The translations under genes and the position numbers were made by a program. Positions 5,345 to 55,481 of a DNA stretch of 64,000 nt are shown here, piece by piece. The first letter of the stretch is position 1, and each line of letters opens with the position of its first letter. The notes below the pieces were generated by a model that was not told the DNA's origin, searched no databases, and saw nothing but the letters and a program-made list of their open reading frames with translations. The DNA is taken from NCBI GenBank assembly GCA_001822815.1, contig MHSR01000013.1:18808-82807 (forward strand). The letters are read 5' to 3'. The DNA is from Candidatus Terrybacteria bacterium RIFCSPHIGHO2_01_FULL_43_35. GTDB taxonomy: Bacteria > Patescibacteriota > Minisyncoccia > Terrybacterales > GWB1-40-14.

Positions 5345-5425
5345 GCCGAAGTGGCGGAATGGCAGACGCGCACGACTCAAAATCGTGTGAGGAAACTCAT
5401 GAGGGTTCGACTCCCTCCTTCGGCA
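5345..5425 (+). tRNA. tRNA-Leu (anticodon CAA), long variable arm, no encoded CCA
   Basis: Manual cloverleaf: acceptor GCCGAAG/CTTCGGC, D-arm, anticodon stem CACGA/TCGTG with loop CTCAAAA, long variable arm, T-arm GAGGG-TTCGACT-CCCTC. Confidence 0.85.
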
Positions 5426-5480
5426 CAAACGCAAAATTTAGTGCTGGGGCGCGCACCGACTTCTAGCACCAGAATGAATT

Positions 5481-5543
5481 CGGTGCGGTACAGGCAAAAT
5501 CGTGTGGAGAAATCCATGAGAGTTTGACTCTCTCCTCGCTCAC
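5481..5543 (+). pseudogene. Degenerate partial copy of the 3' half of tRNA-Leu (anticodon-stem remnant, variable arm, T-arm, acceptor 3' strand). It cannot form an acceptor stem.
   Basis: CAAAATCGTGTGGAGAAATCCATGAGAGTTTGACTCTCTCCTCGCTCACA is about 80% identical to the 3' half of the upstream tRNA-Leu. No complementary 5' acceptor strand lies upstream. Confidence 0.6.
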
Positions 5544-7713: not shown

Positions 7714-8047
7714 AAATTAATATTTGTGTATGCGTTCTCCCAACCATCGCTTTTAGACTTTAAGTGCGCGTTGGGCTAAACAAAAATGCGCAATATATTT
7801 TTGTTCAAACCCAGCTCCAGTTTCTTAGAACCCTTTGGCTTATTTTCTTACCGATAAACGTGGTTCTACTAAATAAATCACTAATTTAAAAACTGGGGCT
7901 GGGGAAAGATCAATAAATGGTATATTGCCGCACTCCCTTGGTTTAGCATAACGCGGCAGAAAGCAACACAAGTGCTAAAAAACAAAAACCAGAATACTCG
8001 ATATTCTGATTTTAAGGATACAACGTGTGGGCTTAGTAGTCAATATA

Positions 8048-9883: not shown

Positions 9884-10130
9884 GCTAGTTGTTGCTCCCG
9901 AACCTTGCGAGGGATTGCAACAACTGCATCCCGAGCGCAGCGAGGGAGTACCTTAATGACGCTTGCCCACGAGCCGCGCGAGTGTTCCGACGATACGTCG
10001 GGACTAAAGCGCAACCGATGGATTACCTGTTAATGTTGGTGTTGCCCACACCATGCGTGGATGCAATTTCGTGCATCCCGACGCACGGTAAGGACTACTC
10101 TAACAACTTATTACTTCTATCATATCACCT
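9884..10130. repeat. Dispersed intergenic repeat element (family A) directly abutting the glmS start codon
   Basis: A 49-nt block (TTGCCCACGAGCCGCGCGAGTGTTCCGACGATACGTCGGGACTAAAGCG) is 48/49 identical to the reverse complement of 38772-38820. It shares the CTAGTTGTTGC start-proximal box with copies at 34581, 38858 and 39694. Confidence 0.7.
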
Positions 10131-14463: not shown

Positions 14464-15936
14464 CTAAATTCTAGGGAACAACGGCTCGCCTTTGTGTGGT
14501 TTGAGCCCTTGCTCCTCCCATGAACCCTGGGCCGATTTATCCAAACCTATCTGCTTAAAAATCTTTTCGGCGGTTTGCGGCAAAAACGGCTCAAGCATCC
14601 AGCCCATATTGACAATTAAATAGAGAAGGTTTGGAATGGCTTTTTGCCAATTATCACCTTGCCACGGCTTTTCGCGGTCAATATAAAGATTGCCTTCACG
14701 CGCAAGCTCATAGATGCGACTTAATGCCTCGCTGAAGCGAAATCTGGCCATAGCCGAGCCGTAAAAATCCCAGGCGTCGTTAACCGAAATTTCGAAATCG
14801 GCTGAAGACATTTTTAATGGTTTGGGGGATTTCTCCGCCAAAGCGCATACTCGCGCAACTAAGTTACCCAGACCATTGGCCAGTTCTGCGGAATAAACAT
14901 CAGCCATGCGCTCAGGGGTCATGTCGCCGTCTTCCATGGCAGGAATTTCCTTAAGCAAAAAATAGCGCACGGCGTCAGCTCCGTATTTGGCTATGAGCCC
15001 AAATGGATCAATAACATTGCCCAAAGACTTAGACATTTTTTGGCCGCCGGATTGAATATGACCATGCACCAGAATAGTTTTGGGTAGAGGTAATTTAACG
15101 ACCATAAGCATGGCCGGCCAAATTATGGCGTGAAAACGCATAATGTCCTTCCCTATCACATGTGCATCTGCGGGCCAGAACTTTTTGAACAGTTCGTCTT
15201 CGCTGCGGCCGAAACCCAAAGCGCTAATATAATTGACCAGCGCGTCGGCCCAAACATAAATAGTATGTTTTTTATCGCCAGGAACAGGTATGCCCCATTT
15301 TAAATCCTTGCTTGGCCGCGAAAAACTAACGTCTTCCAAGCCCTGGTTTATAAAATTCAATACTTCTGTTCGGCGATGTTCCGGAATTATTTTAATAATT
15401 CCCTGTTCATAAATATTAGCCAGCTTTTCTTGGAAATCAGAAAGCTTAAAAAAATAATTCTCTTCTTTTATGATTTCTGGTTTCCTATTATGATCCGAGC
15501 ACAAACCATTTACCAAATCGCTTGGCACTTTGAAAGCCTCGCAACCAGAACAGTAAAGGCCTTCGTAATATTTTTTGTATAAAACCTCTGCCGCGTTTAA
15601 ATTTTGCCACATTTCCTGCGCCCCTGGCCAATGAACCTTCTTATCTGATGTGCGGATAAATGAATCATTGCTTATGTTTAAGTCTTTGGCTAAATCACGG
15701 AAACGCTGGCTTACCTCATCAGCGAAAACCTGTGGGTCTTTGTCCGCTTCTTGCGCGGCTTTAACAATTTTCTGCCCGTGTTCGTCCGTTCCCGTTAGAT
15801 AATAGACGTCGTCTCCCAAAAGCCTTCTGTATCTTGCGATAACATCGGCTTGGCACAATTCCAAAGCAAAACCAACGTGTGGCGGCGCGTTAACATAGGC
15901 AATTGCGGTTGTAATGTAAAATTTTGATTTATTCAT
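14464..15936 (-). CDS. metG: Methionyl-tRNA synthetase (short form)
   Basis: N-terminal class I motif region (PPHVGFALE) and KMSKSLGN motif. Start at 15936. Confidence 0.9.
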   Translation of the reverse strand: MNKSKFYITTAIAYVNAPPHVGFALELCQADVIARYRRLLGDDVYYLTGTDEHGQKIVKAAQEADKDPQVFADEVSQRFRDLAKDLNISNDSFIRTSDKKVHWPGAQEMWQNLNAAEVLYKKYYEGLYCSGCEAFKVPSDLVNGLCSDHNRKPEIIKEENYFFKLSDFQEKLANIYEQGIIKIIPEHRRTEVLNFINQGLEDVSFSRPSKDLKWGIPVPGDKKHTIYVWADALVNYISALGFGRSEDELFKKFWPADAHVIGKDIMRFHAIIWPAMLMVVKLPLPKTILVHGHIQSGGQKMSKSLGNVIDPFGLIAKYGADAVRYFLLKEIPAMEDGDMTPERMADVYSAELANGLGNLVARVCALAEKSPKPLKMSSADFEISVNDAWDFYGSAMARFRFSEALSRIYELAREGNLYIDREKPWQGDNWQKAIPNLLYLIVNMGWMLEPFLPQTAEKIFKQIGLDKSAQGSWEEQGLKPHKGEPLFPRI

Positions 15937-15944
15937 TATCTTTA

Positions 15945-16182
15945 GGACTTACGCGCTTGCCGTTTTTCTCGCTCATCGGTAAGTATGCACTAGTTGTTTT
16001 CGCTCCTATCTGCGGGGACGATTATTGGCACTGCCACAAATTGGTCATCTTCCGGCAAACTCGCTCGCTTTCGCTCGCTCAAACAGTGCCTCACTACGAC
16101 CAATTCGTGGCGCCAATGTACGTCTCCTCGAATGTCGCGAAAATCAACTAGTGCATACAAAAAGTCAAGCGCGTAAGGTCCT
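15945..16182. mobile_element. MITE-like element with terminal inverted repeats in the metG leader
   Basis: The 15945-15990 end (GGACTTACGCGCTTG...GTATGCACTAGTTG) pairs with the 16145-16182 end (CAACTAGTGCATAC...CAAGCGCGTAAGGTCC). The internal sequence is homologous to 18045-18245. The left TIR begins 9 nt from the metG start codon. Confidence 0.65.
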
Positions 16183-16244
16183 AATCATTGAAAAATCTTA
16201 GAAAAAGTGGGTTGGCGTTAATATTTAAATTATACCTTAAAATA

Positions 16245-16952
16245 TTAATAAAAGATTATCGTGTATTCGCCGCGCGGCTTTTCTTTATTGATGTTCTCTA
16301 TCGCCTGTTCAAGCGTGCCGCGGAAAATGGTTTCAAATTTTTTAGTTAGTTCTCTGCCCACAATCACTTTGGCGTTGTCACCCAAAACGGCTCTGGCTTC
16401 CATGAGTGTTTTGGCGACGCGGTAAGGAGATTCGTAAATAATTTTTGGCATATCTTTAAAGACGGCCAGGTTATTGAAAAAAGTCTTTCTGCCTTTTTTG
16501 GTCGGCGGATATCCCAAGAATACGAAATTCTGCATCGGCAAACCAGAAACCGAAGCAAGTGCCGTCAGGGCGCTTGGACCAGGTATTGGCACAACTCTAA
16601 GCTCCATGCCAAGTATGCCATAAAGTCTGGCTACCAGTTCATTGCCTGGATCGGAAATGCCGGGCGTGCCGGCATCGGTGACCAGCGCGCAATTTTTGCC
16701 TTCGCGCAGCAATTGAGCAATATGAAAAGTTGCTTTCTCGCTACTGTGCTGATGGTACGCCTCAAGAAACGTGTTAATGTTATAATGTTTCAAAAGCGTT
16801 TTGGTTACGCGCGTGTCTTCGGCAAATATAAAATCGGCTTCCTTTAATATGCGGAGCGCGCGCAAAGAAATGTCTTCCAAATTACCTATTGGAGTAGCTA
16901 CAATATAAAGGTTTCCATACATACCTTTTATTTGTACTCGCAATAAAGACAA
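16245..16952 (-). CDS. rsmI: 16S rRNA (cytidine1402-2'-O)-methyltransferase
   Basis: Tetrapyrrole-methylase fold N-terminus (LYIVATPIGNLEDISLRALRIL...FAEDTR). Confidence 0.8.
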   Translation of the reverse strand: MSLLRVQIKGMYGNLYIVATPIGNLEDISLRALRILKEADFIFAEDTRVTKTLLKHYNINTFLEAYHQHSSEKATFHIAQLLREGKNCALVTDAGTPGISDPGNELVARLYGILGMELRVVPIPGPSALTALASVSGLPMQNFVFLGYPPTKKGRKTFFNNLAVFKDMPKIIYESPYRVAKTLMEARAVLGDNAKVIVGRELTKKFETIFRGTLEQAIENINKEKPRGEYTIIFY

Positions 16953-17530: not shown

Positions 17531-17608
17531 ACAAAAAGTGTCCGTAAAGGACGCCGAACTCAATTTATTATTGATCGCGAGAACGAGAATCTCCCCCGCT
17601 GGAGTTGT

Positions 17609-17902
17609 TTATTGATTTTTTTCAGTCGAATCTTTTTCGGTCGAATCTGGCGATGGATCAGGATCTGCTATGCTAGACAAACCAATCATAACCGCGCTCA
17701 CAGAAATCACAGAGAGGCCCATTGTAATTGCTAAGATTGCAAACGGGTCCGCGTCCGCGTAGAGGGTAGCGTAGAGGATAGGTAGAACAAGATTACTGAT
17801 CGCTGAAACGACTTGCACCATAAAAAAGGCAATCACGACCATCACAAAGAAACTAACTGCAGTAACGATGCCAAATCTAGCGAGCTTAACGAGATACCGC
17901 AT
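17609..17902 (-). CDS. Small hydrophobic membrane protein (97 aa), hypothetical
   Basis: Two to three predicted TM helices. No motif recognised. Confidence 0.4.
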   Translation of the reverse strand: MRYLVKLARFGIVTAVSFFVMVVIAFFMVQVVSAISNLVLPILYATLYADADPFAILAITMGLSVISVSAVMIGLSSIADPDPSPDSTEKDSTEKNQ

Positions 17903-18044
17903 TTTCTTGTCCCCTTTCTCGGGTTTTCAAAGGGATTCTTTGTGAATCCCGTACTATGTATGTTTATACACTGTTATTGTATTTCTGTCAAGCTCTTCGG
18001 CTAAAACTAAAAGGTCGCCGCAGGCGACCTTCATTATCTTCTTT

Positions 18045-18245
18045 TTTAGTTCTAGAAAAACGTGTCCGCCTGAACGATTTCCGAGGAAACGTAAATTGGC
18101 GCCACGAATCGGACGCCATGAGGCACTGTTTGACCCAGCCCCAGTTTTGCATTAACAAATCTATTTTTATCAAACGGACTGTTAGACAAAACTGGGGCTG
18201 AGGAGTTTGCCGGAAGGTGTCTGATTCGCAGCAATGCCAATAATC
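18045..18245. mobile_element. Second copy (opposite orientation) of the 15945-16182 element, with a nested hairpin element inserted
   Basis: The reverse complement matches blocks of the metG-leader element (ctgcggggacgattattggca, cttccggcaaactc, tcaaacagtgcctca, cgtggcgccaat). The CCCAGCCCCAGTTTT/AAAACTGGGGCTG hairpin at 18134-18203 is present only in this copy. Confidence 0.6.
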
Positions 18246-18281
18246 GTCCCCGCAGACGTGAGCGAAAGCATGACTGCGCTT

Positions 18282-19322
18282 TTACACCTTTACTTTCCCT
18301 TGGCTAAAATCGCTGAAAAATTCTATAAGCACGGCCGCAACTGGAACGGCCAGCAAAATTCCGGGAATGCCGCCGAGGCGGGCGCCTATTAACAACGAAA
18401 AGATGACGATGATAGGATGCAAACCTAATACCCTTTTGAATATTATAGGCACAAGTACATTGCCCTCAAGCTGCTGCAAAACAAAGAAAAACAAACCAAT
18501 CAAGATTGCCATGGCCGGATTCTGGAAAAATGCGATGGAAATCGCGATTATGGCTGTTGCAATAGGACCGACTATGGGAACAATCTCTAAAATACCGGCG
18601 ATTATGGCTATTATAAGAGCGTAATGGATCTGCTCACCCAAAAACAACCCTATCGCAATAAGACCAACATATGTAGCAACGCCGATAAGCACGGCCAATA
18701 CGACCTGCCCCTGGAACCATTGGCCTATTTTTTTCTGCGCGCGCTTCCAGAGATCAACCACATAAGGCTCTTCCGATTGACTAAGCATCCGCAAGAATTT
18801 CTCTTCGCCATCCCTCTGTAAGGCCAGATAGAACGACGCCAAGAATACCGTGATTATTTGAAGGCTCCTGCCGACTACTCCCGTAAAAATACCCGGAAGC
18901 GTGGGTATAAACTGAGCAATATGCGTGTTGATCTCTTCAAAATAAACCTCAAAACCTCCGAATGCTGGGTTGCTCGGATTTATGCCGTATCTGGAGAGAG
19001 AATTTAATATGCCGGTGGCGTAAAATGAAAAATTGGTTGCAAAATCCGTAAGTTCACTGGCTAAAGGAGGCAGGATGGTCCACAAGAAAATAGCCAAGCC
19101 AATGATCGCGGTGAAGTAAACAGTCAAAAGAGCCACGATGCGCGGAATGTGCTTATTTTCCATGCGCGTAGCTAAAGGATCGATAGCCGCAGCTATGACT
19201 ATAGCGAAAAGCAAAAGTATTATTATATCGCGTAAGATAAAAATGGATAAAACAATAACTATAGCCAGCATCACTCTGACGATAGTTGAAGAAGGTATGT
19301 GTATGTAAACGTTATTGTTCAT
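18282..19322 (-). CDS. AI-2E family transporter (UPF0118/PerM-like permease)
   Basis: Eight predicted TM segments and the AI-2E-like topology. Family assignment from overall pattern. Confidence 0.55.
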   Translation of the reverse strand: MNNNVYIHIPSSTIVRVMLAIVIVLSIFILRDIIILLLFAIVIAAAIDPLATRMENKHIPRIVALLTVYFTAIIGLAIFLWTILPPLASELTDFATNFSFYATGILNSLSRYGINPSNPAFGGFEVYFEEINTHIAQFIPTLPGIFTGVVGRSLQIITVFLASFYLALQRDGEEKFLRMLSQSEEPYVVDLWKRAQKKIGQWFQGQVVLAVLIGVATYVGLIAIGLFLGEQIHYALIIAIIAGILEIVPIVGPIATAIIAISIAFFQNPAMAILIGLFFFVLQQLEGNVLVPIIFKRVLGLHPIIVIFSLLIGARLGGIPGILLAVPVAAVLIEFFSDFSQGKVKV

Positions 19323-19452
19323 CCCGTTAGAAGCAGATCGCGATCAATGATCTCAATCTGCAAAATTATTTGTATGGATACTATAATATGACATAGGTAT
19401 TTTTACTGCTAATCTATTGCGATCGCGGCTTCTAACGGGATTCATGATTGGT

Positions 19453-29192: not shown

Positions 29193-29215
29193 AGCCTGGT
29201 ATTGTCAGGCTTTAT
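29193..29215. terminator. Intrinsic terminator downstream of the lipoprotein gene (minus strand)
   Basis: AAGCCTG-loop-CAGGCTT followed by a T-run on the minus strand. Confidence 0.55.
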
Positions 29216-29233
29216 TATTAATAGGCTAAATTA

Positions 29234-29824
29234 TTAGTTTCTCCACCCGCTTTTTGGACGAGATTCAATGGTTATAAGATCATCTGGCGCCACAAGATAG
29301 TATGTGGAATAACGCTGAAGATTTGCATTGAAGCTGTATATCGAAACAGAAGTCATCTCTAAAACAGAATCGCTAAAAGAGGTGTTGGCCCAAATAGAAC
29401 GCGGTTGGTGGTGAGTGTAAAAAACTGTTTTGGTTCCGTCTTCATGGATCCAGGTTACGCGCCATTCAAAATCATTTGGATCGCTGGCATCGCCAGAAGC
29501 TGGCTGCTTATTGATCTCAACGCTGTGGGTGGGATCTACATTAATAGTAAGGGTATTGTAAATATTATTTGTAAGCACTACGCCGTTGGCTTCGCGCGCG
29601 TTGGCCAGAACAACTTGCGGGTCTCTACCCTGCACAAAAACCGGTTCGCTATCGGTATAGTAATCAAATGCCTGAACGTTGCCTTGATTGTAATAAACGT
29701 GCCAAGTATATTCTTGGGCGCTAGAATGCTGACCGTCACCTAACTCAATATCTCCTACGCCAGAGGCACATGAAGCCACCAGAAAAGTTAGCGGTATAAC
29801 TAACAAGGCCGCAATCCGTTTCAT
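29234..29824 (-). CDS. Lipoprotein, hypothetical
   Basis: Lipobox LVASC after a signal peptide (MKRIAALLVIPLTFLVASCASG). Confidence 0.55.
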   Translation of the reverse strand: MKRIAALLVIPLTFLVASCASGVGDIELGDGQHSSAQEYTWHVYYNQGNVQAFDYYTDSEPVFVQGRDPQVVLANAREANGVVLTNNIYNTLTINVDPTHSVEINKQPASGDASDPNDFEWRVTWIHEDGTKTVFYTHHQPRSIWANTSFSDSVLEMTSVSIYSFNANLQRYSTYYLVAPDDLITIESRPKSGWRN

Positions 29825-29826
29825 TA

Positions 29827-30081
29827 TTACCTTCCTCCTTGCGTTGCGTGCGCCAAATATCTAGGCGCGATTTCGTGGGCAAAAACGACTTCGGGCAATG
29901 CCCTATACTTCTTAATTATTTCTGCAATAAACGCGTCGGGTACAAGGCTTAGCAAATAAAGGTCAGTCGCAATGACAAATTCAAAGGTGGCACCTAAATT
30001 CTTATTAATATCGGTGATGCGATCTAAAGAAGCGGACCGGAGAAACTTAACGGCTATAAACTTATGAGCGCGCAAAGCCAT
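29827..30081 (-). CDS. Hypothetical small protein (84 aa)
   Basis: ORF sits 2 bp upstream of the lipoprotein gene. No motif recognised. Confidence 0.35.
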   Translation of the reverse strand: MALRAHKFIAVKFLRSASLDRITDINKNLGATFEFVIATDLYLLSLVPDAFIAEIIKKYRALPEVVFAHEIAPRYLAHATQGGR

Positions 30082-30256
30082 ACTCCTTAGCTCTTTGAAA
30101 CCATTGGATTATTGACAAAAAGCTTTAACTAAAATTTAACCCCGCTAGAAGTCGCTGTCAAATGTATAAAAAAATTGCCCAAATTTTTTATACCGAAGAC
30201 TTCTAAGGGGGTCAATGATTAAAAATGACGAGTATTTATTGATTAACAAAACTGCC

Positions 30257-31285
30257 TTATTTATTTTCGGTACCACCAGTATCGGCGGTTTCTTCGCCAA
30301 GCCGCCGGAAAGAACCTTTGCCAAAAATACTCTCTATTAGACGCGCCAACGGAATTAAATTGCCGCTGAAATTTGCTCGCGCAAATATATCAAAAACCTC
30401 TTGCCTATTCTCAAATCGGCCGTGACTTTTTTCTATAATTTCATCTATCAATCTCCAAAGTTTATCACGTTCATTCTTGCGCCCAACAAATACATCTCTT
30501 CCTTTAGTTTTCGGTGGAAATTCAGCAACTATAGTAGCGATGGTTTCTTTGTCTGGTTCTATTTTCTCAAAAATCGTGAGTATTTCTCTGGCAGAAGGTA
30601 TAGAATATACTTCTTCCATGGCTTCCCGCTCATTCTGCTCTTGTGTTGGATTAAAGCGGTGAACAATATGCAATAATGATTCTTTCAATTTGTTTGTGGC
30701 TTCTATCTCTTCACTATATAATGGATTATTTTGCATTTCCTCGTCGTAAAATTTCTTGGCCAATATTTCGGCAATAGCCTCTTCTATATCTGAAAAGTGT
30801 TTTATGCGACTCTCTCGATCTGATACGATAATGCCGCTTCTATACATACGGTGCTTCTTTTGCGCATCTATTTGCGCAGCTTTGTAGGACAATTGGTGGA
30901 ACATTTCATGCACAAGCGTTGTGGCTACATCTACATTCGACTCCAGATCGCGATCCACTACTATCTCTTGTGCCAAAGACCTGTGTATACCGCCGTAGAA
31001 TTCCCCGTTGGTGAGTTCGGATGCTCCTCCTGATCTTACAAAATGTATTTTATGTGGCGGTATTGGCTTAGGGTCTCCGCCGTAAAACTTTGCCATTCTA
31101 TATGCAAATTCTTCTGCGTTTTGAATAATCGTCTTGTCCTGTTCAGTAAGCCGTATTTCGTACTTGGCAATATCTTGATCGCCAATTTGCAGAAGTTCCT
31201 CTTGTAATTCGTGCTTAAGTCTAGCTCGCTCTCCCTCTGTTCCGCCCACCACTCTTTCAAATTGTGTTTCAAAATTTTCTAGCAT
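30257..31285 (-). CDS. Hypothetical cytoplasmic protein with an HExxH zinc-metallopeptidase-like motif
   Basis: A single HEMFH motif in a 342-aa acidic protein. No signal peptide. Confidence 0.45.
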   Translation of the reverse strand: MLENFETQFERVVGGTEGERARLKHELQEELLQIGDQDIAKYEIRLTEQDKTIIQNAEEFAYRMAKFYGGDPKPIPPHKIHFVRSGGASELTNGEFYGGIHRSLAQEIVVDRDLESNVDVATTLVHEMFHQLSYKAAQIDAQKKHRMYRSGIIVSDRESRIKHFSDIEEAIAEILAKKFYDEEMQNNPLYSEEIEATNKLKESLLHIVHRFNPTQEQNEREAMEEVYSIPSAREILTIFEKIEPDKETIATIVAEFPPKTKGRDVFVGRKNERDKLWRLIDEIIEKSHGRFENRQEVFDIFARANFSGNLIPLARLIESIFGKGSFRRLGEETADTGGTENK

Positions 31286-31519
31286 GATTCCATAAAACCA
31301 TGGATTTATTGCTTGCGCAAACCTTTCGATTTACTCGGGTCTTCGACTCCCGCGGGACTGAGTCCTCGGGACGAACGTCTGAGAGTCTCAGACTCGTTGA
31401 GGTAAACAAAAACAGCTCTATCTAAAACAGAACTGCTTTTGCGCCAAATATCTTTAACAAAAAGTATTTGAGCGTGGAACGAATTTACTTATCTTTTCTT
31501 ATTTTCAAAGTTGGTGTTG

Positions 31520-31750
31520 GTGGTGGAACTAGCCTTGACCTGGCCTAGGCTGGCTCGCGAGACGAACGGGGTTGGGCTTTCAGCCTGGTTGGGAACAGCT
31601 CTCGTTGTATCCCGTACCTATTTCTACCACCCGCTTTTATCCCTCTAGGGGATCCGATCTTCCGGTATCAGACAAACCGTCGTATTAAGGAAATCGGATG
31701 AGCTGTCAATCCGAAACCTTTTTCCACCACCAACCAAAAACGAATTTTTA
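31520..31750. repeat. Copy 1 of a roughly 230-nt structured repeat in a GC-rich islet
   Basis: Shares ordered blocks with 32595-32830: GGGCTTTC(A/G)GCCTG, TACCACCC, GATCTT(C/G)CGGTATCAG(A/G)AAACCGTC, CCACCACCAACCAAAA. Confidence 0.6.
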
Positions 31751-31866
31751 TAAACGCGCTTTTGGCTAATGACGAGATTTATACATGTTTGAAAATATTT
31801 TTGAGATTAACCAGCCCTAATTTCAGATTTGCTAAAATCAGGGCTGGACTGACTTTTGTCGAGGTT

Positions 31867-32073
31867 TCACTTCTCCGCCTCGACCTTCGGATCTTCCAGC
31901 TCGACACCGAGCTCACGCGCCGCGCCTTCGGCCAGCTCGCGCTTCTCCGCGGGCGAGAGCTTGTCGATCTCGACCTTGAACCCGGCCATGTCCTGGCCAG
32001 AGAGCTTGCCGAAGTACTTCCAGAGCACCACGAGCTCGGTCGCCTTGGCGGCTTTGGCGCCAGAGGTGTCCAT
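31867..32073 (-). CDS. Small GC-rich protein (68 aa) with a strong Shine-Dalgarno, hypothetical
   Basis: About 62% GC with high GC3. GAAGGAG lies 8 nt upstream of the ATG. A hairpin overlaps the stop codon. Confidence 0.55.
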   Translation of the reverse strand: MDTSGAKAAKATELVVLWKYFGKLSGQDMAGFKVEIDKLSPAEKRELAEGAARELGVELEDPKVEAEK

Positions 32074-32274
32074 CTTTGGACTCCTTCATTGCTTGATACG
32101 GCTTAAACAATCTCTACTAATTGCAAGAGTTGTTGCCGCGCCTCAACAAACTTCCTGTATTAGAAATTTGCTCAAGTGCGGAACTACTGGTTTTTTCTTT
32201 AAATATGGTGAAGCGAGGGGAAATTCTTACTTGAGTTCCCCTCGCTTACTTAACGATCCTTGTGGATCTGGTGA

Positions 32275-32544
32275 CTAGAGCAGTGCGAGGCGGACGCGTT
32301 CAAGTTTCGCGTGCCAAGCCCCTGAACCACCAGAGATGCGTGTCTCGCGCGTCGCAAGATCAGCCATCTCACGATCCCGCACCACAGCCACGCTGACGGT
32401 GGGCGCCTGATTGCTCGATCCGTGGTTGTAGGCGAAACCTTTCTGGCGTGCCACCTTGCGGATGTAGGTAAGCTTCCTGCTGCGCAGGAAGGAATTTGGG
32501 TCTGCCTTGACCTGGTTCTTCTTGGTGTGGCCTTCTGAGCTCAC
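32275..32544 (-). CDS. Small GC-rich basic protein (89 aa), GTG start with a strong Shine-Dalgarno, hypothetical
   Basis: TAAGGAGGAGAC-GTG start context. GC-rich stem terminator (AGCGAGGGGAA/TTCCCCTCGCT) downstream. Confidence 0.55.
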   Translation of the reverse strand: MSSEGHTKKNQVKADPNSFLRSRKLTYIRKVARQKGFAYNHGSSNQAPTVSVAVVRDREMADLATRETRISGGSGAWHAKLERVRLALL

Positions 32545-32594
32545 GTCTCCTCCTTACTTGGCTTTTGCCTGCCCGCTTCTTTGGTTTTAGTTAT

Positions 32595-32830
32595 TTAAAG
32601 GTGCGGATGGTGATGGGACTGGTATAGCGTAAGACGCCGAACGGCGTCACGTGCTTAACCGATGAATGGGACTGGGCTTTCGGCCTGCTCGTTTCAGAGT
32701 AGCTCTACTCCAGTAGCTTTCAGTACCACCCATATTTATCAACACGCTCTTTTTGCCTGAGGCATGGCCTGATCTTGCGGTATCAGGAAACCGTCATCTT
32801 CCCCATCACCACCAACCAAAACAAACATGT
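32595..32830. repeat. Copy 2 of the roughly 230-nt structured repeat
   Basis: See copy 1. Located immediately 5' (minus-strand sense) of the 89-aa gene. Confidence 0.6.
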
Positions 32831-33397
32831 TGTTGATGCAAACTTGCTTTGGTTGATGGCAATCAATGATTTAGTTTTTAAAAAACATTCTCATACAAGA
32901 CGAGACCCTCGGGCATGATCTTTTAGAAGATCACACCAGGGAGTCTCCTCTCGGAGTCTTACCTTCACCGCATCACGCTTAGCCCGCCAAAATTTTAAAA
33001 TAAAATTTGTATGTTTGCGGGGGTTGATGCGTTTTGACAGATGCTACACGCCAAACCGACGCTTCGGTTAAATCGCGGATGCCTCTGACACTGCAAATCA
33101 TTATACAAACCTATTGCATCCGCTCACGAAAGAATCAGTAAGGCGGTGACGACACCAAGCCTCCCAAGCTACTTGATGTCCTGCCTATGCATAGAAACTG
33201 TCAATGCATACTGTCAATAACTAAAGTATATCATATAAGTTTTAACTTGTCAAGAGCAAGAGGGTTGCTTTAGGCTTGTTTTGGATATTTTCTTTATTCT
33301 AAAAGGGTTATATTAAATTGTGATTTGTCAGAATATGCTGACATGTATGGGTTGAGTATGGTACTTCTAATTCAAACTTCGATATCGCCAGGCACTA

Positions 33398-33426
33398 TTG
33401 ACATTTATACCACATAATGATATAAT
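33398..33426 (+). promoter_or_regulatory. Consensus sigma70 promoter (TTGACA-17-TATAAT)
   Basis: TTGACA at 33398-33403, a 17-nt spacer, and TATAAT at 33421-33426, read directly. Confidence 0.7.
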
Positions 33427-33432
33427 TTTATT

Positions 33433-33797
33433 GTGCGGCATAAATGACCGCATGAAAACAAGCTCTCTTGAAGGAAGAGAGCAAGGAGTAGCGTTATGGG
33501 CAACGGGTAGGTAGCGTCTGAAGCAAAAGAATGTGGTATGCAAAACAAAGGCGCAAGGTAACTATTTACTAGACGCGCCCAAGATGAAAGCGGTACCAAT
33601 GGCTCTAGATCAAGCGCTGCCTTAACCCTCGGTTGTCAAACAGAGGATCGCAGAGCGATAAGAGCCCTAAAGACAAGCTTCAACGTTAACCCCTGGAAAA
33701 GGCCGCGCCTATCCAGACAAAAAACCCAAATCAAGCTCTCTTTGTTCTTTCTTCACCAAGGCCGCCACTCTACTCGAGAGGCGGCCTAAACTTTTAT
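33433..33797 (+). ncRNA. Candidate roughly 365-nt non-coding RNA of unknown class
   Basis: Bounded by the consensus promoter and an intrinsic terminator (GGCCGCC-13-GGCGGCC followed by TAAACTTTTAT, 33757-33797). No ORF longer than 20 codons. Internal hairpins are present, e.g. CTCTCTTgaaggAAGAGAG. Confidence 0.5.
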
Positions 33798-33851
33798 ACA
33801 AAAACTGCTTTTTATGCAGAGTTTAAAAGACGGAGCACTGCTTTCTGTTAT

Positions 33852-34580
33852 TTATTTCCAAGCCAGAGAAAACAAGGCTCTCAACGTTTCAGCAATTTCC
33901 TTACTTTCAATAATGATGCCCATGGGTTTCCCGCGAAAGACGGCCATGGCTACTTTGTTACCATAAATAATCAAGTCGCTAGCAATACCCGCTTTGAGAG
34001 GCAAATATTTTGTTTCAACTCCCTGCGCATATTTCGCAATCGGTCCGGCTTTATGCGTATAGAATGTCTGTCCGCGAACATGTTTCTTGGAGCGACGCAA
34101 ACGGTAAACTTCACGCTCACTTTCAGAAAATAGCTCTTCATATTCGTCTCGTGGGAATATTTCCACTATAGAACTAGTCTTGGTGCGCAGAAAATCTTCC
34201 TGCATGGCCTTCAGGCCTTCCTTGCCCTCGAAAAAACGCACGCGCGGATGTTCCCTGGCCTGATCATAAAGGGCTTTAAGACGAGGAAGAATTTTTTCGG
34301 TTTCGGTTCGTTTAATTTTTAATTCCTGCTCGTTGCGATCTAGAAGTCGCATCAGCCTTTCGGGAAATTCTGCTGAAAGCAATCTCTTGCTTCCCTGTTC
34401 GTGCCAACTAACCAAACCAAGCTTAGCTAATTCTTCAAGAGCCAAATATGCCGTGGGTCTTCGTATGCCAGATTTCTTGGCGATATCTTGTACAGTTGCC
34501 TGACCCAGTTCCAAAACCGCCAAATAAACTCTGGCTTCCTTATCCGAAAGTCCTATGCTTTTTAGTTCTGGCTCGAACAT
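33852..34580 (-). CDS. TrmB-family transcriptional regulator
   Basis: N-terminal winged-helix TrmB signature (LSDKEARVYLAVLELGQATVQDIAKKSGIRRPTAYLALEELAKLGLV). Confidence 0.55.
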   Translation of the reverse strand: MFEPELKSIGLSDKEARVYLAVLELGQATVQDIAKKSGIRRPTAYLALEELAKLGLVSWHEQGSKRLLSAEFPERLMRLLDRNEQELKIKRTETEKILPRLKALYDQAREHPRVRFFEGKEGLKAMQEDFLRTKTSSIVEIFPRDEYEELFSESEREVYRLRRSKKHVRGQTFYTHKAGPIAKYAQGVETKYLPLKAGIASDLIIYGNKVAMAVFRGKPMGIIIESKEIAETLRALFSLAWK

Positions 34581-34900
34581 GTGCTAGTTGTTGCCCACGA
34601 CCCAGCTCTAATTTCTGAGCGTTTGGGCATTTCTAAAATTATAATGTATAATTTTATCTTGGTTTAAAACTTTTATCGAATTGTTTTTGGTAAATTAGGG
34701 CTGGATCGCGGTTGCAACGACGTGCATCTCTTCGAGTTCATCGAATCTGAGATTCTCTGAATCGAATGATCTGAAGACTCATCAGACGTTCGTCTCTTCG
34801 AGCCTGAGGGCTCCGCAGAGCCTGAACGGCCCGAGGACTCAGTCCCGAGGGAGTCTGAACGACCTAAGGAGCAAAGCGACGAGGGATTACTTTTCATTTA
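34581..34900. repeat. Composite repeat region (family A start-box plus degenerate serine-codon-like tandem units) abutting the TrmB-like gene start
   Basis: GTGCTAGTTGTTGCCCACGA lies directly after the start codon on the + strand. The 34700-34890 stretch resembles 39720-39800 and 31330-31400 (gcatctcttcgag..ctgaagactc..cgagggattac). Confidence 0.6.
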
Positions 34901-34977
34901 TTATAGCATTAAAAAGATTGAGCCCGGCCCGAGTTTTATCTAAAACTGGAGCTGGGCTCTTTGTTTTGGCTTAGCGG

Positions 34978-35315: not shown

Positions 35316-37058
35316 TTACATTCTTTCCGGAGCATGAATTCCCATTAGGCGCATGGTGTTGGCCAAAACTATTTTTGTGGCGCGCACCAATGCTAAACGC
35401 GCAAGAGTTAAATCCTTATCCTCGCCTATAACTTGGCAATCGCGATAAAAAGCCGAAAAAACCGTGGCCACATCCGTGGCATAAACTGGCAGACGGCTGA
35501 CTTCATATTTGGAGGCAATATCTTCTACTAATTCCGGCAGAATAATTAACTTCTTTATCAACTGCGTTTCTGAAGGGTGCGCCAATTTTAAAAGCAAGTT
35601 ATTTCTTGCCGACCCCTCAACAATCCCCTCTTGTTTGGCTTGCCCTGAGCCAGCCGAACTGGCTTTGGCCAGAATGCTTGCACATCTCGCATGAGCATAC
35701 TGCACATAATAGACCGGGTTTTTGTCGGATTGTTCGCGTGCCAAAGTCATATCAAAATCCATATGGCTATTTGGTTCGCGCATCAAAAAGAAGAAGCGCG
35801 CAGCATCCAAGCCTACAGTATCAACTAATTCTTCAAGGGTTATGAATGTTCCGGTACGCTTGGACATGCGCACTTCTTGCCCGTTTTCCATCAAACGCAC
35901 AAGCTGAACCAAAATAAAATCGAATTTTCTTGAGCTCGAAACAAGCCCCAAGGATGCAAAAACTCTGTTCAACGTAAACATATGGGCATGGTGGTCGGCG
36001 CCGACAATATCTATGACTTTATCAAAACGGCGCCGCTTAAATTTATCCCAGTGATAAGCTATATCCGGAAGCAAATATGTGGGCTCGCCGTTTGATTTAA
36101 TCAGAACTCTTTCGTTAATATTGTCGTTTTCTTTAAGTCGCAACCATTGGGCTCCTTCCTTTTTTTCGATCAAATGTTTTTTCTGAAGAGCTTCATAAGC
36201 CTCCTTAATAAGCCCCTGGCGATGTAGGCTTTTCTCCGAAAACCACACGTCGAAACGTATTTTAAGTTTTTTTGTTATTCTTTTTATATCTTCCAATATC
36301 ATCTTTGAAGCCGTGCGGCTTATTGCTTCCGGGTTCAATTCCTCCGGCTTAAACTTGGAAATTTGCAGTTTATAAGCCAGTTCCTGTACGTATCCTCCGG
36401 GATAAAGCTCTTCGGGCGGATAAGGAATTTTGTAATCCCCGCCCGAAACCTTACCGGCTGCAATTACCGACCAGCCCAATTTTTTTATCTGCTCCCCGGC
36501 ATCATTTACATAATATTCACGAGTAATTTTGTATCCGGCAAAATCTAAAACGTTAGACAGAGCATCACCCAAAAACCCTCCACGTCCGTTTCCCAAAGTA
36601 GGCGGACCGGTAGGATTTGCTGATATAAATTCTACCTGCACATTTTGCTTATGTCCGATATCTATACGGCCATAATTGTTTTTAGCGCTTAAAATATTCT
36701 TAATTTGTTTGGCTAGATATTCAGGAGAGAGTGAAAAATTTATAAACCCCGGTCCGGCAACTTTTACGCTTTTTACTACGGCATTAAAGCGCTTATTTGT
36801 TTCAAGTCCGGTAATAATATTTTCGGCTACGGCATGAGGAGATTTTTTGCCTATTGCGGCCAAAACCATGGCGATATTTGAAGCGTAATCGCCGTATTGG
36901 ATATTGCTGGCTGGTTCAACGGTAAAATTTATTTTTTCCATGTGAAAGCCGGCATTTTGAGACGCCGCAATAATACTCTTTATCAAAAATTGCTTGGTTG
37001 TGGCTACCTCGCCGGATCCTTTAGTAAATATCTTGTCCTTGGGTGATTTTGTGGCCAT
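35316..37058 (-). CDS. argS: Arginyl-tRNA synthetase
   Basis: SANPTGP signature region, DALS-type anticodon-binding C-terminus. 580 aa. Confidence 0.85.
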   Translation of the reverse strand: MATKSPKDKIFTKGSGEVATTKQFLIKSIIAASQNAGFHMEKINFTVEPASNIQYGDYASNIAMVLAAIGKKSPHAVAENIITGLETNKRFNAVVKSVKVAGPGFINFSLSPEYLAKQIKNILSAKNNYGRIDIGHKQNVQVEFISANPTGPPTLGNGRGGFLGDALSNVLDFAGYKITREYYVNDAGEQIKKLGWSVIAAGKVSGGDYKIPYPPEELYPGGYVQELAYKLQISKFKPEELNPEAISRTASKMILEDIKRITKKLKIRFDVWFSEKSLHRQGLIKEAYEALQKKHLIEKKEGAQWLRLKENDNINERVLIKSNGEPTYLLPDIAYHWDKFKRRRFDKVIDIVGADHHAHMFTLNRVFASLGLVSSSRKFDFILVQLVRLMENGQEVRMSKRTGTFITLEELVDTVGLDAARFFFLMREPNSHMDFDMTLAREQSDKNPVYYVQYAHARCASILAKASSAGSGQAKQEGIVEGSARNNLLLKLAHPSETQLIKKLIILPELVEDIASKYEVSRLPVYATDVATVFSAFYRDCQVIGEDKDLTLARLALVRATKIVLANTMRLMGIHAPERM

Positions 37059-37104
37059 AACTGTATATTTATTATAATACCATGCTAAATTGGGATTAGA
37101 GATT

Positions 37105-37552: not shown

Positions 37553-37935
37553 GGGGATGCCGGGCTTCGAAAAGGAAAAGTGTAGCGCGCGCAGGACGAG
37601 GCCGATCAACAACCTCGAAAAAAGTTGATCACTTACAAGTGCAAACTTGTTCGCAAAAGTGCAGAACGCTTTCCGCGTTCCAGCATTTGCTCTTGCTTAA
37701 ATTAGCTTGAGCCATCCGGCCCTGATGCTCGATAAGGAAACGCCGGGTGCCATACATCGAGCTTGACTAGCATAAGGACCTCGCTTGCGCTACGCGACTC
37801 AAACAGGGGTAGGAATATCTGAAATTCTGCCGTTCTTTGACCGGATATTCTGACAAAACATTACAGAATGGCTAATCCTGTAGAAGCGTGCCGCATAATT
37901 TTTCTTTGACGTGGGTTCAACTCCCACCATCTCCA
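37553..37935 (+). ncRNA. ssrA: tmRNA (SsrA)
   Basis: 5' GGGGATGCCGGGCTTCGA... pairs with 3' ...GACGTGGGTTCAACTCCCACCATCTCCA (tRNA-like domain). An internal tag frame at 37640-37699 ends ...AFALA-TAA. Located immediately after smpB. Confidence 0.8.
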
Positions 37936-38026
37936 CAAACCATGCCGACAATTTATAAATAGTTTTAACTATCTGCAAAAGTTTAATTATTATCAGCGCC
38001 GTCCGCAGTTTCAACGAGGACCGCGC

Positions 38027-38741: not shown

Positions 38742-38871
38742 AAATTAAAATAATGTAATCCTTCGACTACGCTTTAGTCCCGACGTATCGTCGGGACACT
38801 CGCGCGGCTCGTGGGCAATCCTTCGATAAACTCAGGATTGTCCTGAGCAAAGTCGAAGGACAACAACTAGC
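38742..38871. repeat. Family A repeat element inserted between rpmI and rplT
   Basis: Contains the 49-nt block that is the reverse complement of 9962-10010 (1 mismatch). It ends in CAACAACTAGC immediately before the rplT ATG. Confidence 0.7.
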
Positions 38872-39227: not shown

Positions 39228-39258
39228 AAAACCCCGCTTCAAAGCGGAGTTTTTATTA
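39228..39258. terminator. Bidirectional intrinsic terminator (AAAACCCCGCTT-caa-AGCGGAGTTTTT)
   Basis: Stem-loop flanked by an A-run and a T-run, between the rplT (+) end and the NUDIX (-) end. Confidence 0.7.
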
Positions 39259-39693
39259 GTGTTTAGCAAGAAACGCCTCGGCTTTCTTTATCAGATCTTT
39301 AGCGTTCTTGTATGTAGCAAGTTTAACGGCTTCATTATACGGCAACCATACATAACCGGTATGTTCGTGCGATAAACGGACATTACCGCCATAAGCTTCA
39401 CCCAAGAAAAATGTTACTGTTTTTAAGGTTCGGGTAGGCCGGCCACGTTTTTTTTGAGCATAAGACCACATCCAATATTGCATAACCTCTCTAAAATTAT
39501 TAAAGAGTTTAATGTTTTTTAAGCCAGTTTCTTCAAATATTTCTCGGCGCGCGGCTTGTTCTGCCTTCTCCCCCGCCTCAAGATGGCCTTTGGCAAAATC
39601 CCAGTGTCCGGCTTCGTAATGCAGAAGCAGATACTGCCTTATTTTTTTATAGCGCCGGAAGATAATCGCACCGGCTGAAATTTCTGGTCTCAT
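39256..39693 (-). CDS. NUDIX hydrolase
   Basis: Nudix box GHLEAGEKAEQAARREIFEETGL. Confidence 0.8.
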   Translation of the reverse strand: MRPEISAGAIIFRRYKKIRQYLLLHYEAGHWDFAKGHLEAGEKAEQAARREIFEETGLKNIKLFNNFREVMQYWMWSYAQKKRGRPTRTLKTVTFFLGEAYGGNVRLSHEHTGYVWLPYNEAVKLATYKNAKDLIKKAEAFLAKH

Positions 39694-39880
39694 GTGTTAG
39701 TTGTTGCCCGCGAGTTTGCTCGCGGATGCAACATGCATCTCTTCGAGTCTGAAGACTCTTCAGAGTCTGAACGACCCGAGCGAAGTCGAGGGATTACCTG
39801 CCAATTTTGCCCTCGCGGCAGCGGGGTGCAAAATTGTGCATCCTGAGCGGAGCGAAGGATTACCTAAAATTATACCATCA
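39694..39880. repeat. Family A repeat element abutting the NUDIX start codon
   Basis: GTGTTAGTTGTTGCCCGCGAG start-box. Internal units gcatctcttcgagtctgaagactcttcagagtctgaacgac, and CGAGGGATTACCT / CGAAGGATTACCT ends. Confidence 0.65.
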
Positions 39881-41655: not shown

Positions 41656-43440
41656 TTATTTATCTTTTAATGCTTTTAGCATCTGTTTAAGGGGATAAGT
41701 ATTGATTACGCTCCTCTTTTCAGTCCAACCTCGTCGTGCCTGCGCAATGCCGTAATGCAAAACATTAAGACCGGCTATTGAATGCGCATCTGAATCTATG
41801 GCTATTTTTACTCCGGCGGAAACGGCTTTGCGTATATATTCGTCTTTAAGATCAAGACGCTGCCAATAGGCGTTGGCCTCCAAAACCGTGCCGGTTCTCT
41901 TTGCGGCGGCAATAACTTCATCCATATCAACCTCATAAGGGGCGCGTTTATTTATTATTCTGCCGGTGGGATGGAAAAATATATCAACGTGCGGATTTGA
42001 TATGGCTTTTATGATACGTTTGGTCATATCGTGTCTGGACATATTGAAATAAGAATGTACTGACACGCCAACCACATCTAATTTAGCCAAAATTTTATTA
42101 GGCAAATCCAATGAACCGTCTTTCAAAATATCACATTCTGTTCCTTTAAGTATGCTGATGTCTTTGAACTTTGTGTTAATACGATCAATTTCAGCCATTT
42201 GCTTTAAGAGACGCCGCTCATCGAGCCCATGAGTCATGGCCAGGCGTTTGGTGTGATCAGTAATGGCAATATATTTGTGGCCGAGCTTAAGCGCTGCGCG
42301 AGCCAAATCTTCAATTGAATCTTCGCCGTCAGTCCAGTTGGATTGAACTTGCAAATCTCCCATCAAATCATCGTAGCCTACAAGCTTTGGCAATTTGGCT
42401 TGCCGCGCTGCTTCAATTTCGCCGGTGCTTTCTCGTAATTCAGGTTCTATATACTCAAGATCCAATATCTTATAGATTTCTTCCTCGGTTCTGCCGCAAA
42501 TATATTTATCTCCTTTTTTGCCTCCAAAAACCCCGTATTCGCTTAGCTTTAACCCCCTTTTTATAGCCAATTGCCTCAAAGTCACATTGTGGTCTTTATT
42601 GCCTGTAAAATAGTTAAGTGCTGCGCCAAAGGACTCGCGCGGCACGACACGCAAATCCAGATCGAGGCCATTTTTTAAACGAACCATAGTTTTTGTTCCG
42701 CCTTTGGCGTAAACATGGATGACCTCGGGCATGCTGACAAAATAATCCATGACCTTATCTGGAGAAGAAGAGACAACCAAAAAGTCTCCGTCCCCTACTG
42801 TTTCTTTTCTGCGCCTGATAGAGCCGACTATCTCAATCAATTCAACTTGGGATAATTTTCTTAGGCGATCTCTTATACTTAAAGCTAAGGGTAAAACTTC
42901 GCCCAACAAAAACCTTCCGCCGTGCTTTTTGTGGAATTCTATGCCCTTAACTATTTTTTGCTCGGTTTTTTCACCGAAGTGCTCCAATTTTCTTATCTTT
43001 CCGGTCTTAGCTGCTTTTTCAAGATCGGCAACATTTCTGATCCCGAGTTTTTTGTATAAAGTAATAATCATTTTAGGACCCACGCCTTCAATGGCCGACA
43101 ACGCCTCTACATCAACCGGTATTTCTTTCTTTAATTCCTGGTAATATTTCAGGTGGCCAGTTTTTACTAACTCCACCACTTTTGAGGCAATAGAAATGCC
43201 CACCCCCGGTATTTCTTCAAGGCCTTTTAATCCTGACTTTTTATATATTTCTTCAACCGGTTCCTCTAATGATTCAACGACCCGTGCGGATTTTTCATAA
43301 GCACGGGGCTTAAATGGCACGTTCTTCATCTCAAGGAATTCGGCTATCTGGTAAAGGATGCGAGCAATTTCTTGGTTAGTAACCATGCTCGATATATTAT
43401 TTATGGTCTTGGTTATTTCCGTTAACGCCTCTCCAGGCAT
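41656..43440 (-). CDS. polX: DNA polymerase X family protein with C-terminal PHP domain (PolX)
   Basis: N-terminal Pol-beta-like HhH region, C-terminal PHP histidines (ITDHTKRL..., HSYF..., DSDAH). Confidence 0.75.
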   Translation of the reverse strand: MPGEALTEITKTINNISSMVTNQEIARILYQIAEFLEMKNVPFKPRAYEKSARVVESLEEPVEEIYKKSGLKGLEEIPGVGISIASKVVELVKTGHLKYYQELKKEIPVDVEALSAIEGVGPKMIITLYKKLGIRNVADLEKAAKTGKIRKLEHFGEKTEQKIVKGIEFHKKHGGRFLLGEVLPLALSIRDRLRKLSQVELIEIVGSIRRRKETVGDGDFLVVSSSPDKVMDYFVSMPEVIHVYAKGGTKTMVRLKNGLDLDLRVVPRESFGAALNYFTGNKDHNVTLRQLAIKRGLKLSEYGVFGGKKGDKYICGRTEEEIYKILDLEYIEPELRESTGEIEAARQAKLPKLVGYDDLMGDLQVQSNWTDGEDSIEDLARAALKLGHKYIAITDHTKRLAMTHGLDERRLLKQMAEIDRINTKFKDISILKGTECDILKDGSLDLPNKILAKLDVVGVSVHSYFNMSRHDMTKRIIKAISNPHVDIFFHPTGRIINKRAPYEVDMDEVIAAAKRTGTVLEANAYWQRLDLKDEYIRKAVSAGVKIAIDSDAHSIAGLNVLHYGIAQARRGWTEKRSVINTYPLKQMLKALKDK

Positions 43441-43897
43441 TAAGCGCTTTTGAAAATTCGGTGAAGAGGAAATAAGCTAGTGTTTCGTAACAAAGCGCGG
43501 TCATACTTTCGGGAACATTCCAGCGTGGAGTCAAATAGCTAGCAATAAACATAATCAATAATGTGCCCCACCAGATATAAACGAATATTTCTCCGCGTCT
43601 TACGCGCGGAGCAACGCCGGTCCAACGCAATGTTTCCTTATGAACTATATAAGCGCCCAACAAAACAATATAACCTGCTTGTATTGTATGCGGCGTGGCC
43701 ATGTCAAAGAAAAACTCGGTCCACTCCATAAGCAGGATGACAAACGTCCATAGCATCAAAAACCAAAACATCCAGTCCTTAACCTGGACTAATTCTTTTT
43801 CATAACGAAGACATATCTGAGCCAGTTTATTTGGGGGTATAGATAAATATTCCTTATCAGGATCAGATGAATTTTGATTATTGCTCGTGTTTTCCAT
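43397..43897 (-). CDS. Membrane protein, hypothetical (166 aa)
   Basis: Three to four predicted TM helices. 3' end overlaps the polX start by about 44 bp. Confidence 0.4.
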   Translation of the reverse strand: MENTSNNQNSSDPDKEYLSIPPNKLAQICLRYEKELVQVKDWMFWFLMLWTFVILLMEWTEFFFDMATPHTIQAGYIVLLGAYIVHKETLRWTGVAPRVRRGEIFVYIWWGTLLIMFIASYLTPRWNVPESMTALCYETLAYFLFTEFSKALNAWRGVNGNNQDHK

Positions 43898-44099
43898 ATA
43901 TTTATTATACCTTGGCCAAACGCATACCCCAACTTTATTGGATTTTTATATTGTTGTTAACGAAAAGGTTATTTTTCTAGATGGCTCTTAGAGTTATCGG
44001 GGTTCACAAAAATATTTAAATCTGCTTGAGCCAACATTTGGGATACTGAACCAAAAACACCCCTTGAGGGGTGTTTTGTCGAGTGATACCGCGCTGAAT

Positions 44100-51421: not shown

Positions 51422-51425
51422 ATAT

Positions 51426-55379: not shown

Positions 55380-55481
55380 TTTGGCATGGTTCCCGAGCGC
55401 GAGCGAGGGACAAAATGGCCAAGGCCTCGGAGCCCCGCGCTGGCGGGGCGAGAATGAGTGAGAAAAGAGTAAGCGTGTAAG

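Follow-up and report, generated by a model that had tools for sequence, protein, structure and literature searches.

A long non-coding palindromic repeat in the metG leader of an uncultured Candidatus Terrybacteria bacterium

Organization of the metG locus

The DNA described here is a window of 64 000 nucleotides, numbered from its first letter, from the genome of a Candidatus Terrybacteria (Parcubacteria), an uncultured groundwater bacterium whose sequence was obtained from metagenomes. The gene for methionine–tRNA ligase (metG, 490 amino acids; 14464–15936, minus strand) was assigned from its Pfam families and homologues. Its start codon lies at 15934–15936 and is separated by a spacer of 308 nt from a TP_methylase gene on the same strand (16245–16952). 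Within this spacer residues 15942–16184, which we call copy 1, form one long imperfect palindrome, a near-perfect hairpin of 243 nt that ends 5–8 nt upstream of the metG start codon. Copy 1 folds as a single rod, with energies of -106 kcal/mol on the plus strand and -118 kcal/mol on the minus strand (z = -11.3 and -12.6, respectively), and none of 200 shuffled sequences was as stable.

The initial annotation described 15945–16182 as a 238 bp MITE-like element bearing two pairs of inverted repeats. Both pairs were found again: an outer pair at 15948–15966/16159–16177 (19 nt, 89% complementary) and an inner pair at 15983–16000/16141–16158 (18 nt, 94% complementary). The exact 14-mer GTATGCACTAGTTG occurs only at the two inner-repeat sites, with 0.17 occurrences expected when up to two mismatches are allowed. 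The left repeat had been placed 9 nt from the metG start, which agrees with a GGAC beginning at 15945 and the codon at 15934–15936; with the outer repeat lengthened to TTAGGAC/GTCCTAA, 5 nt remain before the start codon.

From the outside inwards, copy 1 consists of several distinct parts. The metG-proximal outer arm (TTAGGACTTACGCGCTTGCCGTTTT, 15942–15966) pairs with the distal arm (AAAAAGTCAAGCGCGTAAGGTCCTAA, 16159–16184) and is found again, 88% identical, at 55337–55360. The two arms belong to what we term the shell, which also includes an unpaired asymmetric segment at 15967–15982 (minus strand TTACCGATGAGCGAGA), where ATGAGCGAGAAAA matches ATGAGTGAGAAAA of a second shell copy discussed below. 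The left arm of the inner repeat (GTATGCACTAGTTGTTTT) contains AACAACTAG on the minus strand, the signature of a family of sequences that abut start codons. Further inside is the core (15995–16137, plus strand), the only part of copy 1 held in common with a second copy near 18 kb, to the reverse complement of which (18075–18270) it is 82–84% identical. The tip of the hairpin is at 16060–16080 (CTCGCTCGCTTTCGCTCGCTC).

Several overlapping open reading frames cross copy 1 and copy 2 in different frames, and none has a real homologue in a database search; the frame 1 product matched the same locus only and the frame 2 product only eukaryotic tandem-repeat noise. Two peptides quoted earlier as confirmation of homology between the copies were reproduced exactly; the core itself is 82–84% identical at the DNA level. 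The region across copy 1 is without coding capacity, as a MITE would be, and the open reading frames called in it are spurious.

A second core copy and the hairpin at its tip

The interior of copy 1 had been reported to recur in reverse complement, and it does: 15995–16062 corresponds to 18203–18270 and 16073–16137 to 18075–18139, each at 82% identity, with blastn reporting 82% over 68 nt and 84% over 58 nt (E values of 1e-14 and 1e-13). Copy 2 comprises this core and a closing stem of its own, rich in G-U pairs, and spans 18045–18283 on the minus strand, where it folds with -99 kcal/mol (z = -7.0). The earlier right-hand limit of 18245 was some 25–38 nt too short, as copy 2 reaches approximately 18270–18283. 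Neither inverted-repeat pair of copy 1, that is the shell arms or the inner arms of 14–18 nt, is present around copy 2.

Copy 2 begins at the TAA stop codon of a gene for an AI-2E family transporter (18282–19322, minus strand; Pfam PF01594) and lies in its 3' UTR. The GTAA that opens the core of copy 2 includes this stop codon (18282–18284). On its 3' side is an intrinsic terminator (18005–18032, minus strand) with a 10-pair stem followed by TAGTTTTAGC.

An extra hairpin of roughly 70 bp had been described as inserted in copy 2. The hairpin, here called hairpin C, is present at 18133–18203 (71 nt), with perfect 14-nt arms at 18136–18149/18187–18200 and an energy of -37 kcal/mol, but it takes the place of the 21-nt tip of copy 1 and is not a clean insertion. 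Its stems are found twice more, in the rny leader (7810–7903, loop of 66 nt) and in a terminator-like hairpin (34925–34960, loop of about 4 nt), so that the same stems enclose loops of about 4, 37 and 66 nt.

The search for further copies covered 81 kb, comprising the window and 17 kb of flanking sequence. Self-comparison, which had been recommended for finding them, gave two copies of the core, two of the shell and three of hairpin C. A two-sequence nhmmer profile of the core recovered only copies 1 and 2, which are 1.9 kb apart and both contained within 2.3 kb.

A second copy of the shell

The other shell copy, E55, is found at 55339–55484 on the plus strand, 39 kb from copy 1, and has the same arms and asymmetric segment. 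Shared with copy 1 are the left arm GACTTACGCGCTTRCCTTTTT, the right arm AAAAG.GTAAGCGYGTAAGTC and the unpaired segment ATGAGYGAGAAAA. The shell has an orientation, since the unpaired segment aligns only when the minus strand of copy 1 is compared with the plus strand of E55. Between its arms E55 carries nothing related to the core, only two other hairpins (-85 kcal/mol, z = -9.9). The outer arms thus appear, on the sequences of the two copies on which the family rests, to form a separate, oriented shell family. The shell arms, which are 19–25 nt long and 89% complementary and recur at a second site, qualify as terminal inverted repeats such as MITEs have.

As judged from these comparisons copy 1 itself looks like a nest of two or three layers, because its outer arms belong elsewhere and its inner arms are not conserved in copy 2. 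Thus, much of the original description of the 238 bp survives, namely that the sequence is non-coding, palindromic, repeated and nested, but the core alone recurs at 18 kb and the outer arms appear to be another family, so that a single MITE is not an adequate description.

The shell and core elements sit flush with the ends of open reading frames. The end of the E55 shell (55482–55484) contributes part of the TGA stop codon of an RNaseH-like (DUF458) gene, and at copy 2 the corresponding position is 18282–18284.

Comparison with other assemblies and with relatives

The exact MetG protein was found on at least 22 contigs, from JGI, NCBI (GCA_001822905.1, contig MHSX01000014.1), ENA and Logan. 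Ten contigs, assembled independently (JGI, NCBI, ENA with two assemblers, and Logan), were fetched. Copy 1 is present in all ten and copy 2 in all eight that reach its site, in every case with 100% identity, and no empty-site allele occurs among these ten same-species contigs.

The nearest relative with a long contig, L125, is a different species with a MetG that is 69% identical. Its gene order is as in the window: ileS, recO, a gene with no family match, proS, an M16 peptidase gene, the AI-2E gene, a gene for a 159-residue protein, TP_methylase, metG and tatD, and further on leuS, glmS, rny and HU. Spacers within the syntenic block are 2–50 nt in L125 and 60–330 nt in the window. In L125 the spacer before metG is 7 nt and the preceding gene is an extra ydjC, while the AI-2E gene and its neighbour overlap by 4 nt. 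In L127, a further species whose MetG is 58% identical, metG overlaps the methylase gene. Neither L125 nor L127 has the elements at either site. The AI-2E protein of L125 terminates at the same residue as its counterpart in the window (...GK(V/I)KV*), from which it follows that copy 2 starts right at the native stop codon.

No repeat signature was found in the 21.5 kb of L125 apart from one chance TTACGCGCTT without an inverted partner, and the matches of intergenic blastn against L125 were confined to a tRNA and a portion of the rny leader. The short spacers of L125, free of the elements, indicate that the elements were most likely gained in this lineage after its split from the nearest sequenced relative. 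With the ydjC difference at the metG site and its distance, L125 provides no exact empty site. We considered whether the copy 1 spacer might be a remnant of ydjC and rejected this, the spacer being a repeat with no similarity to L125.

Two other stretches near the AI-2E gene also differ from L125. Approximately 750 nt at 17531–18281 are missing from the relative; they hold copy 2 and the terminator, together with a good TTGACA-17-TATAAA promoter and an open reading frame of 97 codons (17609–17902) that has internal direct repeats and no family match. At 19323–19452 there is a 130-nt hairpin (z = -6.1) with perfect 14-nt arms (CCCGTTAGAAGC.../...GCTTCTAACGGG), the 3' arm of which stops exactly at the ATG of the AI-2E gene, where the spacer of the relative is 19 nt.

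Evidence for and against mobility

The cognate transposase that the initial annotation proposed to look for was not found: the called genes of the 81 kb include no transposase, integrase or HUH family. Among the unannotated proteins of the same region there was no NCBIfam match and one weak PHROG match, to a family of unknown function. A search for target-site duplications gave an ambiguous result. AAATATA is present on both sides of E55, although an AT-rich continuation of the inverted repeat would account for these bases equally well; the flanks of copy 1 do not match one another. Removal of E55 and one AAATATA in silico restores the RNaseH-like open reading frame with two additional codons and a TAA stop; the protein predicted for this empty site was not found in a collection of 15 billion proteins.

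Copies were also sought in outside collections. A metagenome scan with the conserved 18-mer GCGGGGACGATTATTGGC, in a collection that does not include the source genome, returned 34 matches, all of them chance matches of 18–27 nt. Scans of viral contigs with the core, shell and start-codon-junction patterns gave chance matches only, none with an inverted partner, and blastn against phages and plasmids gave no match.

With only two core copies in 81 kb, both within 2.3 kb, and with no clear target-site duplication, no transposase and no copy in the outside collections, one might suppose that the core was copied once to a site about 2 kb away by an accident of replication or repair, and that the shell and hairpin C are unrelated neighbours. 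We consider such a local inverted duplication unlikely. The palindrome alone was duplicated and its flanks were not; the copies have diverged by 18% and their pairing has nevertheless been kept; and the two families nested with the core are dispersed over 7.8–55 kb. Repeated palindromes, plausibly mobile, remain the reading that we prefer.

Other types of element were rejected. A template/variable repeat pair of a diversity-generating retroelement does not fit, as no reverse transcriptase family was found among the called genes of the 81 kb and both copies are outside real genes. Integron attC sites, retrons and 6S RNA were rejected on account of the housekeeping neighbours, the lack of associated genes and the lack of an Rfam match.

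Two regions remote from metG may be mentioned here. The tRNA-Leu(CAA) gene (5345–5426) is followed after 70 nt by a second version of its 3' half (5495–5536, 83% identical), an arrangement that resembles the scar left by integration at a tRNA gene. The region 29200–34600 contains small open reading frames without family matches and unusually long spacers (570 and 1307 nt), and may be an island; no integrase or transposase was recognised there.

Transcription and RNA structure

A -10-like box, GGTATAAT, is located upstream of copy 1 at 16229–16236 on the minus strand. It occurs seven times in the window, against 1.9 expected, and is also found 7 and 25 nt upstream of the ATG codons of the genes at 43397–43897 and 39256–39693. 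If functional, this box would put copy 1 in the 5' UTR of metG. The positions of copy 1, after the box, and copy 2, between the AI-2E stop codon and the terminator, suggest that both are transcribed. The two copies are oppositely oriented relative to local transcription.

At the gathering threshold Rfam recognised only a tmRNA and two tRNAs in the whole window, and between 15900 and 18320 with E values up to 10 only miRNA-type hairpin noise well below threshold. The tmRNA gene (37553–37938, 122 bits, tag ANLFAKVQNAFRVPAFALA) adjoins smpB. A T-box leader was rejected, there being no match to RF00230 at E up to 10. Like copy 1, a T-box is a long structured leader before a synthetase gene; unlike a T-box, copy 1 is absent from related metG genes and its sequence recurs in a 3' UTR. 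A terminator scan of the metG-sense (minus) strand from the element to the start codon found no terminator-like hairpin, and the metG leader contains no terminator/antiterminator pair.

The pairing has been conserved between the two core copies. On the minimum-energy structure of copy 1, 90.8% of cells are paired, compared with 37–43% with slid partners, and six pairs have changed on both sides. In the consensus fold of 41 pairs five changes are compensatory, eight are one-sided and tolerated through G-U pairing, and no pair is broken. The covariation score was equalled by 35 of 500 shuffles and, coming from two sequences, is weak evidence; correction of one arm by the other in a DNA palindrome would yield the same pattern as selection on an RNA.

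These observations bear on the possibility that the structure functions as RNA, either as a cis element of the metG leader that affects translation or stability or as the source of a small RNA derived from the AI-2E 3' UTR. The RNA of copy 2 would be about 82% complementary to the copy in the metG leader, and its location between a stop codon and a terminator would suit such a source. The five or six two-sided changes could reflect selection on RNA and not a selfish DNA. Copy 2 has 13 G-U pairs on the transcribed strand and five on the other, and folding of the leader predicts that two bases of the metG AUG, the U and the G, take part in the stem at the base of the rod (probabilities of being unpaired 0.08 and 0.01). 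The strand bias is not general, however, as copy 1 has two such pairs against four and E55 is more stable when folded as the strand antisense to the gene that it abuts. In addition, the same genes in the nearest relatives lack the element, the copies are opposed with respect to transcription, and neither Rfam nor the T-box model gave a match. We therefore regard a dedicated functional RNA as quite unlikely. Copy 1 does not appear to be a methionine-sensing leader or a conserved regulator of metG, and whatever influence it has on metG expression would most likely be incidental to the presence of a double-stranded rod of 243 nt situated 5 nt from the start codon.

Comparison with known repeat families

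Among bacterial MITEs a close parallel is CREE/NEMIS (Correia repeat enclosed elements) of Neisseria, for which promoter creation, IHF binding and RNase III binding or cleavage have been reported (PMC2649163). The elements share a length of 100–250 bp, absence of coding sequence, terminal inverted repeats of about 20–26 bp, and location in transcribed spacers near start codons with long hairpins in the mRNA, the last of these deduced in the present case from position and fold. CREE differs in having hundreds of copies, a TA target duplication and documented presence or absence between strains. The present families have two copies each (core and shell) in 81 kb, no clear duplication, no strain polymorphism and no sequence similarity to CREE.

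The ERIC (IRU) elements of enterobacteria are imperfect palindromes of about 127 bp, known only from intergenic regions that are transcribed; insertions at fixed internal sites give rise to longer variants, and the pairing is conserved across copies. The core is likewise an imperfect palindrome in a spacer that, from its position, is probably transcribed, with conserved pairing, size variants and a variable tip. This is a functional analogy and not a class of homology: ERIC belongs to a different phylum, has far more copies and shows no sequence similarity. The comparison is silent on the mode of spreading, since to our knowledge no transposase is known for ERIC either.

The tagged REP architecture, in which GTAG precedes the palindrome, has been described (PMC3733652). 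REP, BIME and REPIN elements resemble those reported here in their palindromic stems with an unpaired 5' tetranucleotide, in the opposed arrangement of nearby units into larger structures, and in their placement after coding regions, where they are plausibly active as RNA hairpins. A GTAA stands just before the stem in both core copies, on the same element strand (invariant columns G43–A46), and might act as such a tag; six of the start-codon-abutting modules described below begin with GTAATCC (one with a mismatch further on) and a seventh with GTACTCC. Combined with conserved stems, free loops and no clear target-site duplication, as expected for Y1 enzymes, this makes attractive a mechanism in which a Y1 HUH transposase of the RAYT or IS200/IS605 type, in place of a DDE enzyme, would have moved the elements in the form of single-stranded hairpins. 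REPs, however, are very abundant palindromes of 20–40 bp with a GTAG or CGTC tag, and the present units, at 145–245 nt, are four to six times as long. No RAYT or other Y1 transposase gene was found in the 81 kb, the shell lacks a 5' GTAA, and the GTAA of copy 2 overlaps a native stop codon and may be there by chance. We judge this mode of movement to be very unlikely.

BOX, RUP and SPRITE are small interspersed repeats of pneumococci (PMC3049150). The present elements are similarly small and interspersed in a compact genome. BOX is modular, and co-transcription with adjacent genes and stable RNA structures are features of the pneumococcal repeats. The modules of BOX stand in a row, without the nesting at hairpin tips seen here, and RUP has an identified IS relative, while none is known for the present elements.

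An assembly artefact or chance similarity, considered since metagenome assemblies can generate inverted chimeras, is practically excluded by the identical sequence in JGI, NCBI, ENA (two assemblers) and Logan contigs, by fold z scores of -7 to -13 and by repeat E values of 1e-13 to 1e-14.

Interpretation of the region

In our view the region is probably a stack of nested palindromic repeats that are non-coding, specific to this lineage and of the MITE/REP/ERIC kind; the repeat family is new but the kind of element is ordinary. On this interpretation copy 1 would comprise an oriented shell with arms of about 21–25 nt, an inner stem of 18 nt and a rod-like core of 143 nt, and copy 2 would be the same core reversed, closed by a different stem and tipped by a member of a third family, hairpin C. 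Each of the three families has kept its stems, while variable or foreign sequence occupies the loop or tip. Because the stems are conserved and the tips are free, we infer that the machinery that spreads or maintains the elements may recognise them as folded hairpins, and the same pattern suggests that hairpin tips are tolerated or targeted sites of further insertion. Within transcribed spacers, namely the 5' UTR of metG and the 3' UTR of the AI-2E gene, the elements would fold into long rods of double-stranded RNA. The consequence of these rods is likely to be incidental; by analogy with other co-transcribed palindromic repeats, it could be an effect on the processing, stability or translation of the mRNA. 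The sequences themselves show the anatomy of the elements, their repetition and nesting, their absence from the relative, their lack of coding capacity and the kept pairing, and from these we infer transposition, transcription and any effect on the RNA.

Sequences at start-codon junctions

Several long hairpins in the window stop 0–6 nt before start codons that have no Shine–Dalgarno sequence. In addition, four genes, encoding glmS, a TrmB-like regulator, rplT and a NUDIX hydrolase, have AACAACTAR followed by C or CAC directly before the ATG and again no Shine–Dalgarno sequence (9884–9893, 34581–34592, 38862–38871 and 39694–39702; 1–3 nt to the ATG). In L125 glmS has a normal promoter and an AAGGAA box upstream. 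The signature AACAACTAG occurs four times, against 0.44 expected, the fourth occurrence being the inner repeat of copy 1. Modules of the form GTAATCCYTCG...GGATGCA are stacked in the leaders of the same four genes (9908–10026, 34880–34890, 38755–38825 and 39787–39863), always in the sense orientation, and 64 nt of the glmS leader (9963–10026) are 92% identical to the rpmI–rplT spacer (38755–38818).

At other genes a -10-like box ends about 7–13 nt before the ATG (43897–43911, 51421–51440 and 37058–37085; for example GGTATAATAAATAT-ATG). The sequence of these starts suggests that leaderless mRNAs, or mRNAs with a very short leader, are common in this genome.

A more far-reaching idea, which we hold to be improbable, is that a system of hairpin-recognising elements inserts in hairpin tips and directly against the boundaries of open reading frames. 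If this were true, the elements would supply a start region independent of a Shine–Dalgarno sequence or, alternatively, would be cut from the mRNA to give leaderless or short-leader messages, with the metG element as one instance.

Implications

Returning to the interpretation as nested palindromic repeats, no major open question is altered by the elements. For annotation, the metG 'leader' should not be labelled a regulatory RNA, and the open reading frames across copy 1, such as the 58-residue JGI call, should be regarded as spurious. The usual picture of genomes of the candidate phyla radiation is one of great compactness and few repeats. Here, spacers of 100–300 nt stand where those of a relative are 2–50 nt, and nested palindromes make up much of the extra DNA, which makes this genome a useful case for studying how a small genome tolerates such DNA. 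It also raises the question of how translation starts where a 240-nt hairpin stands in place of the usual ribosome-binding region.
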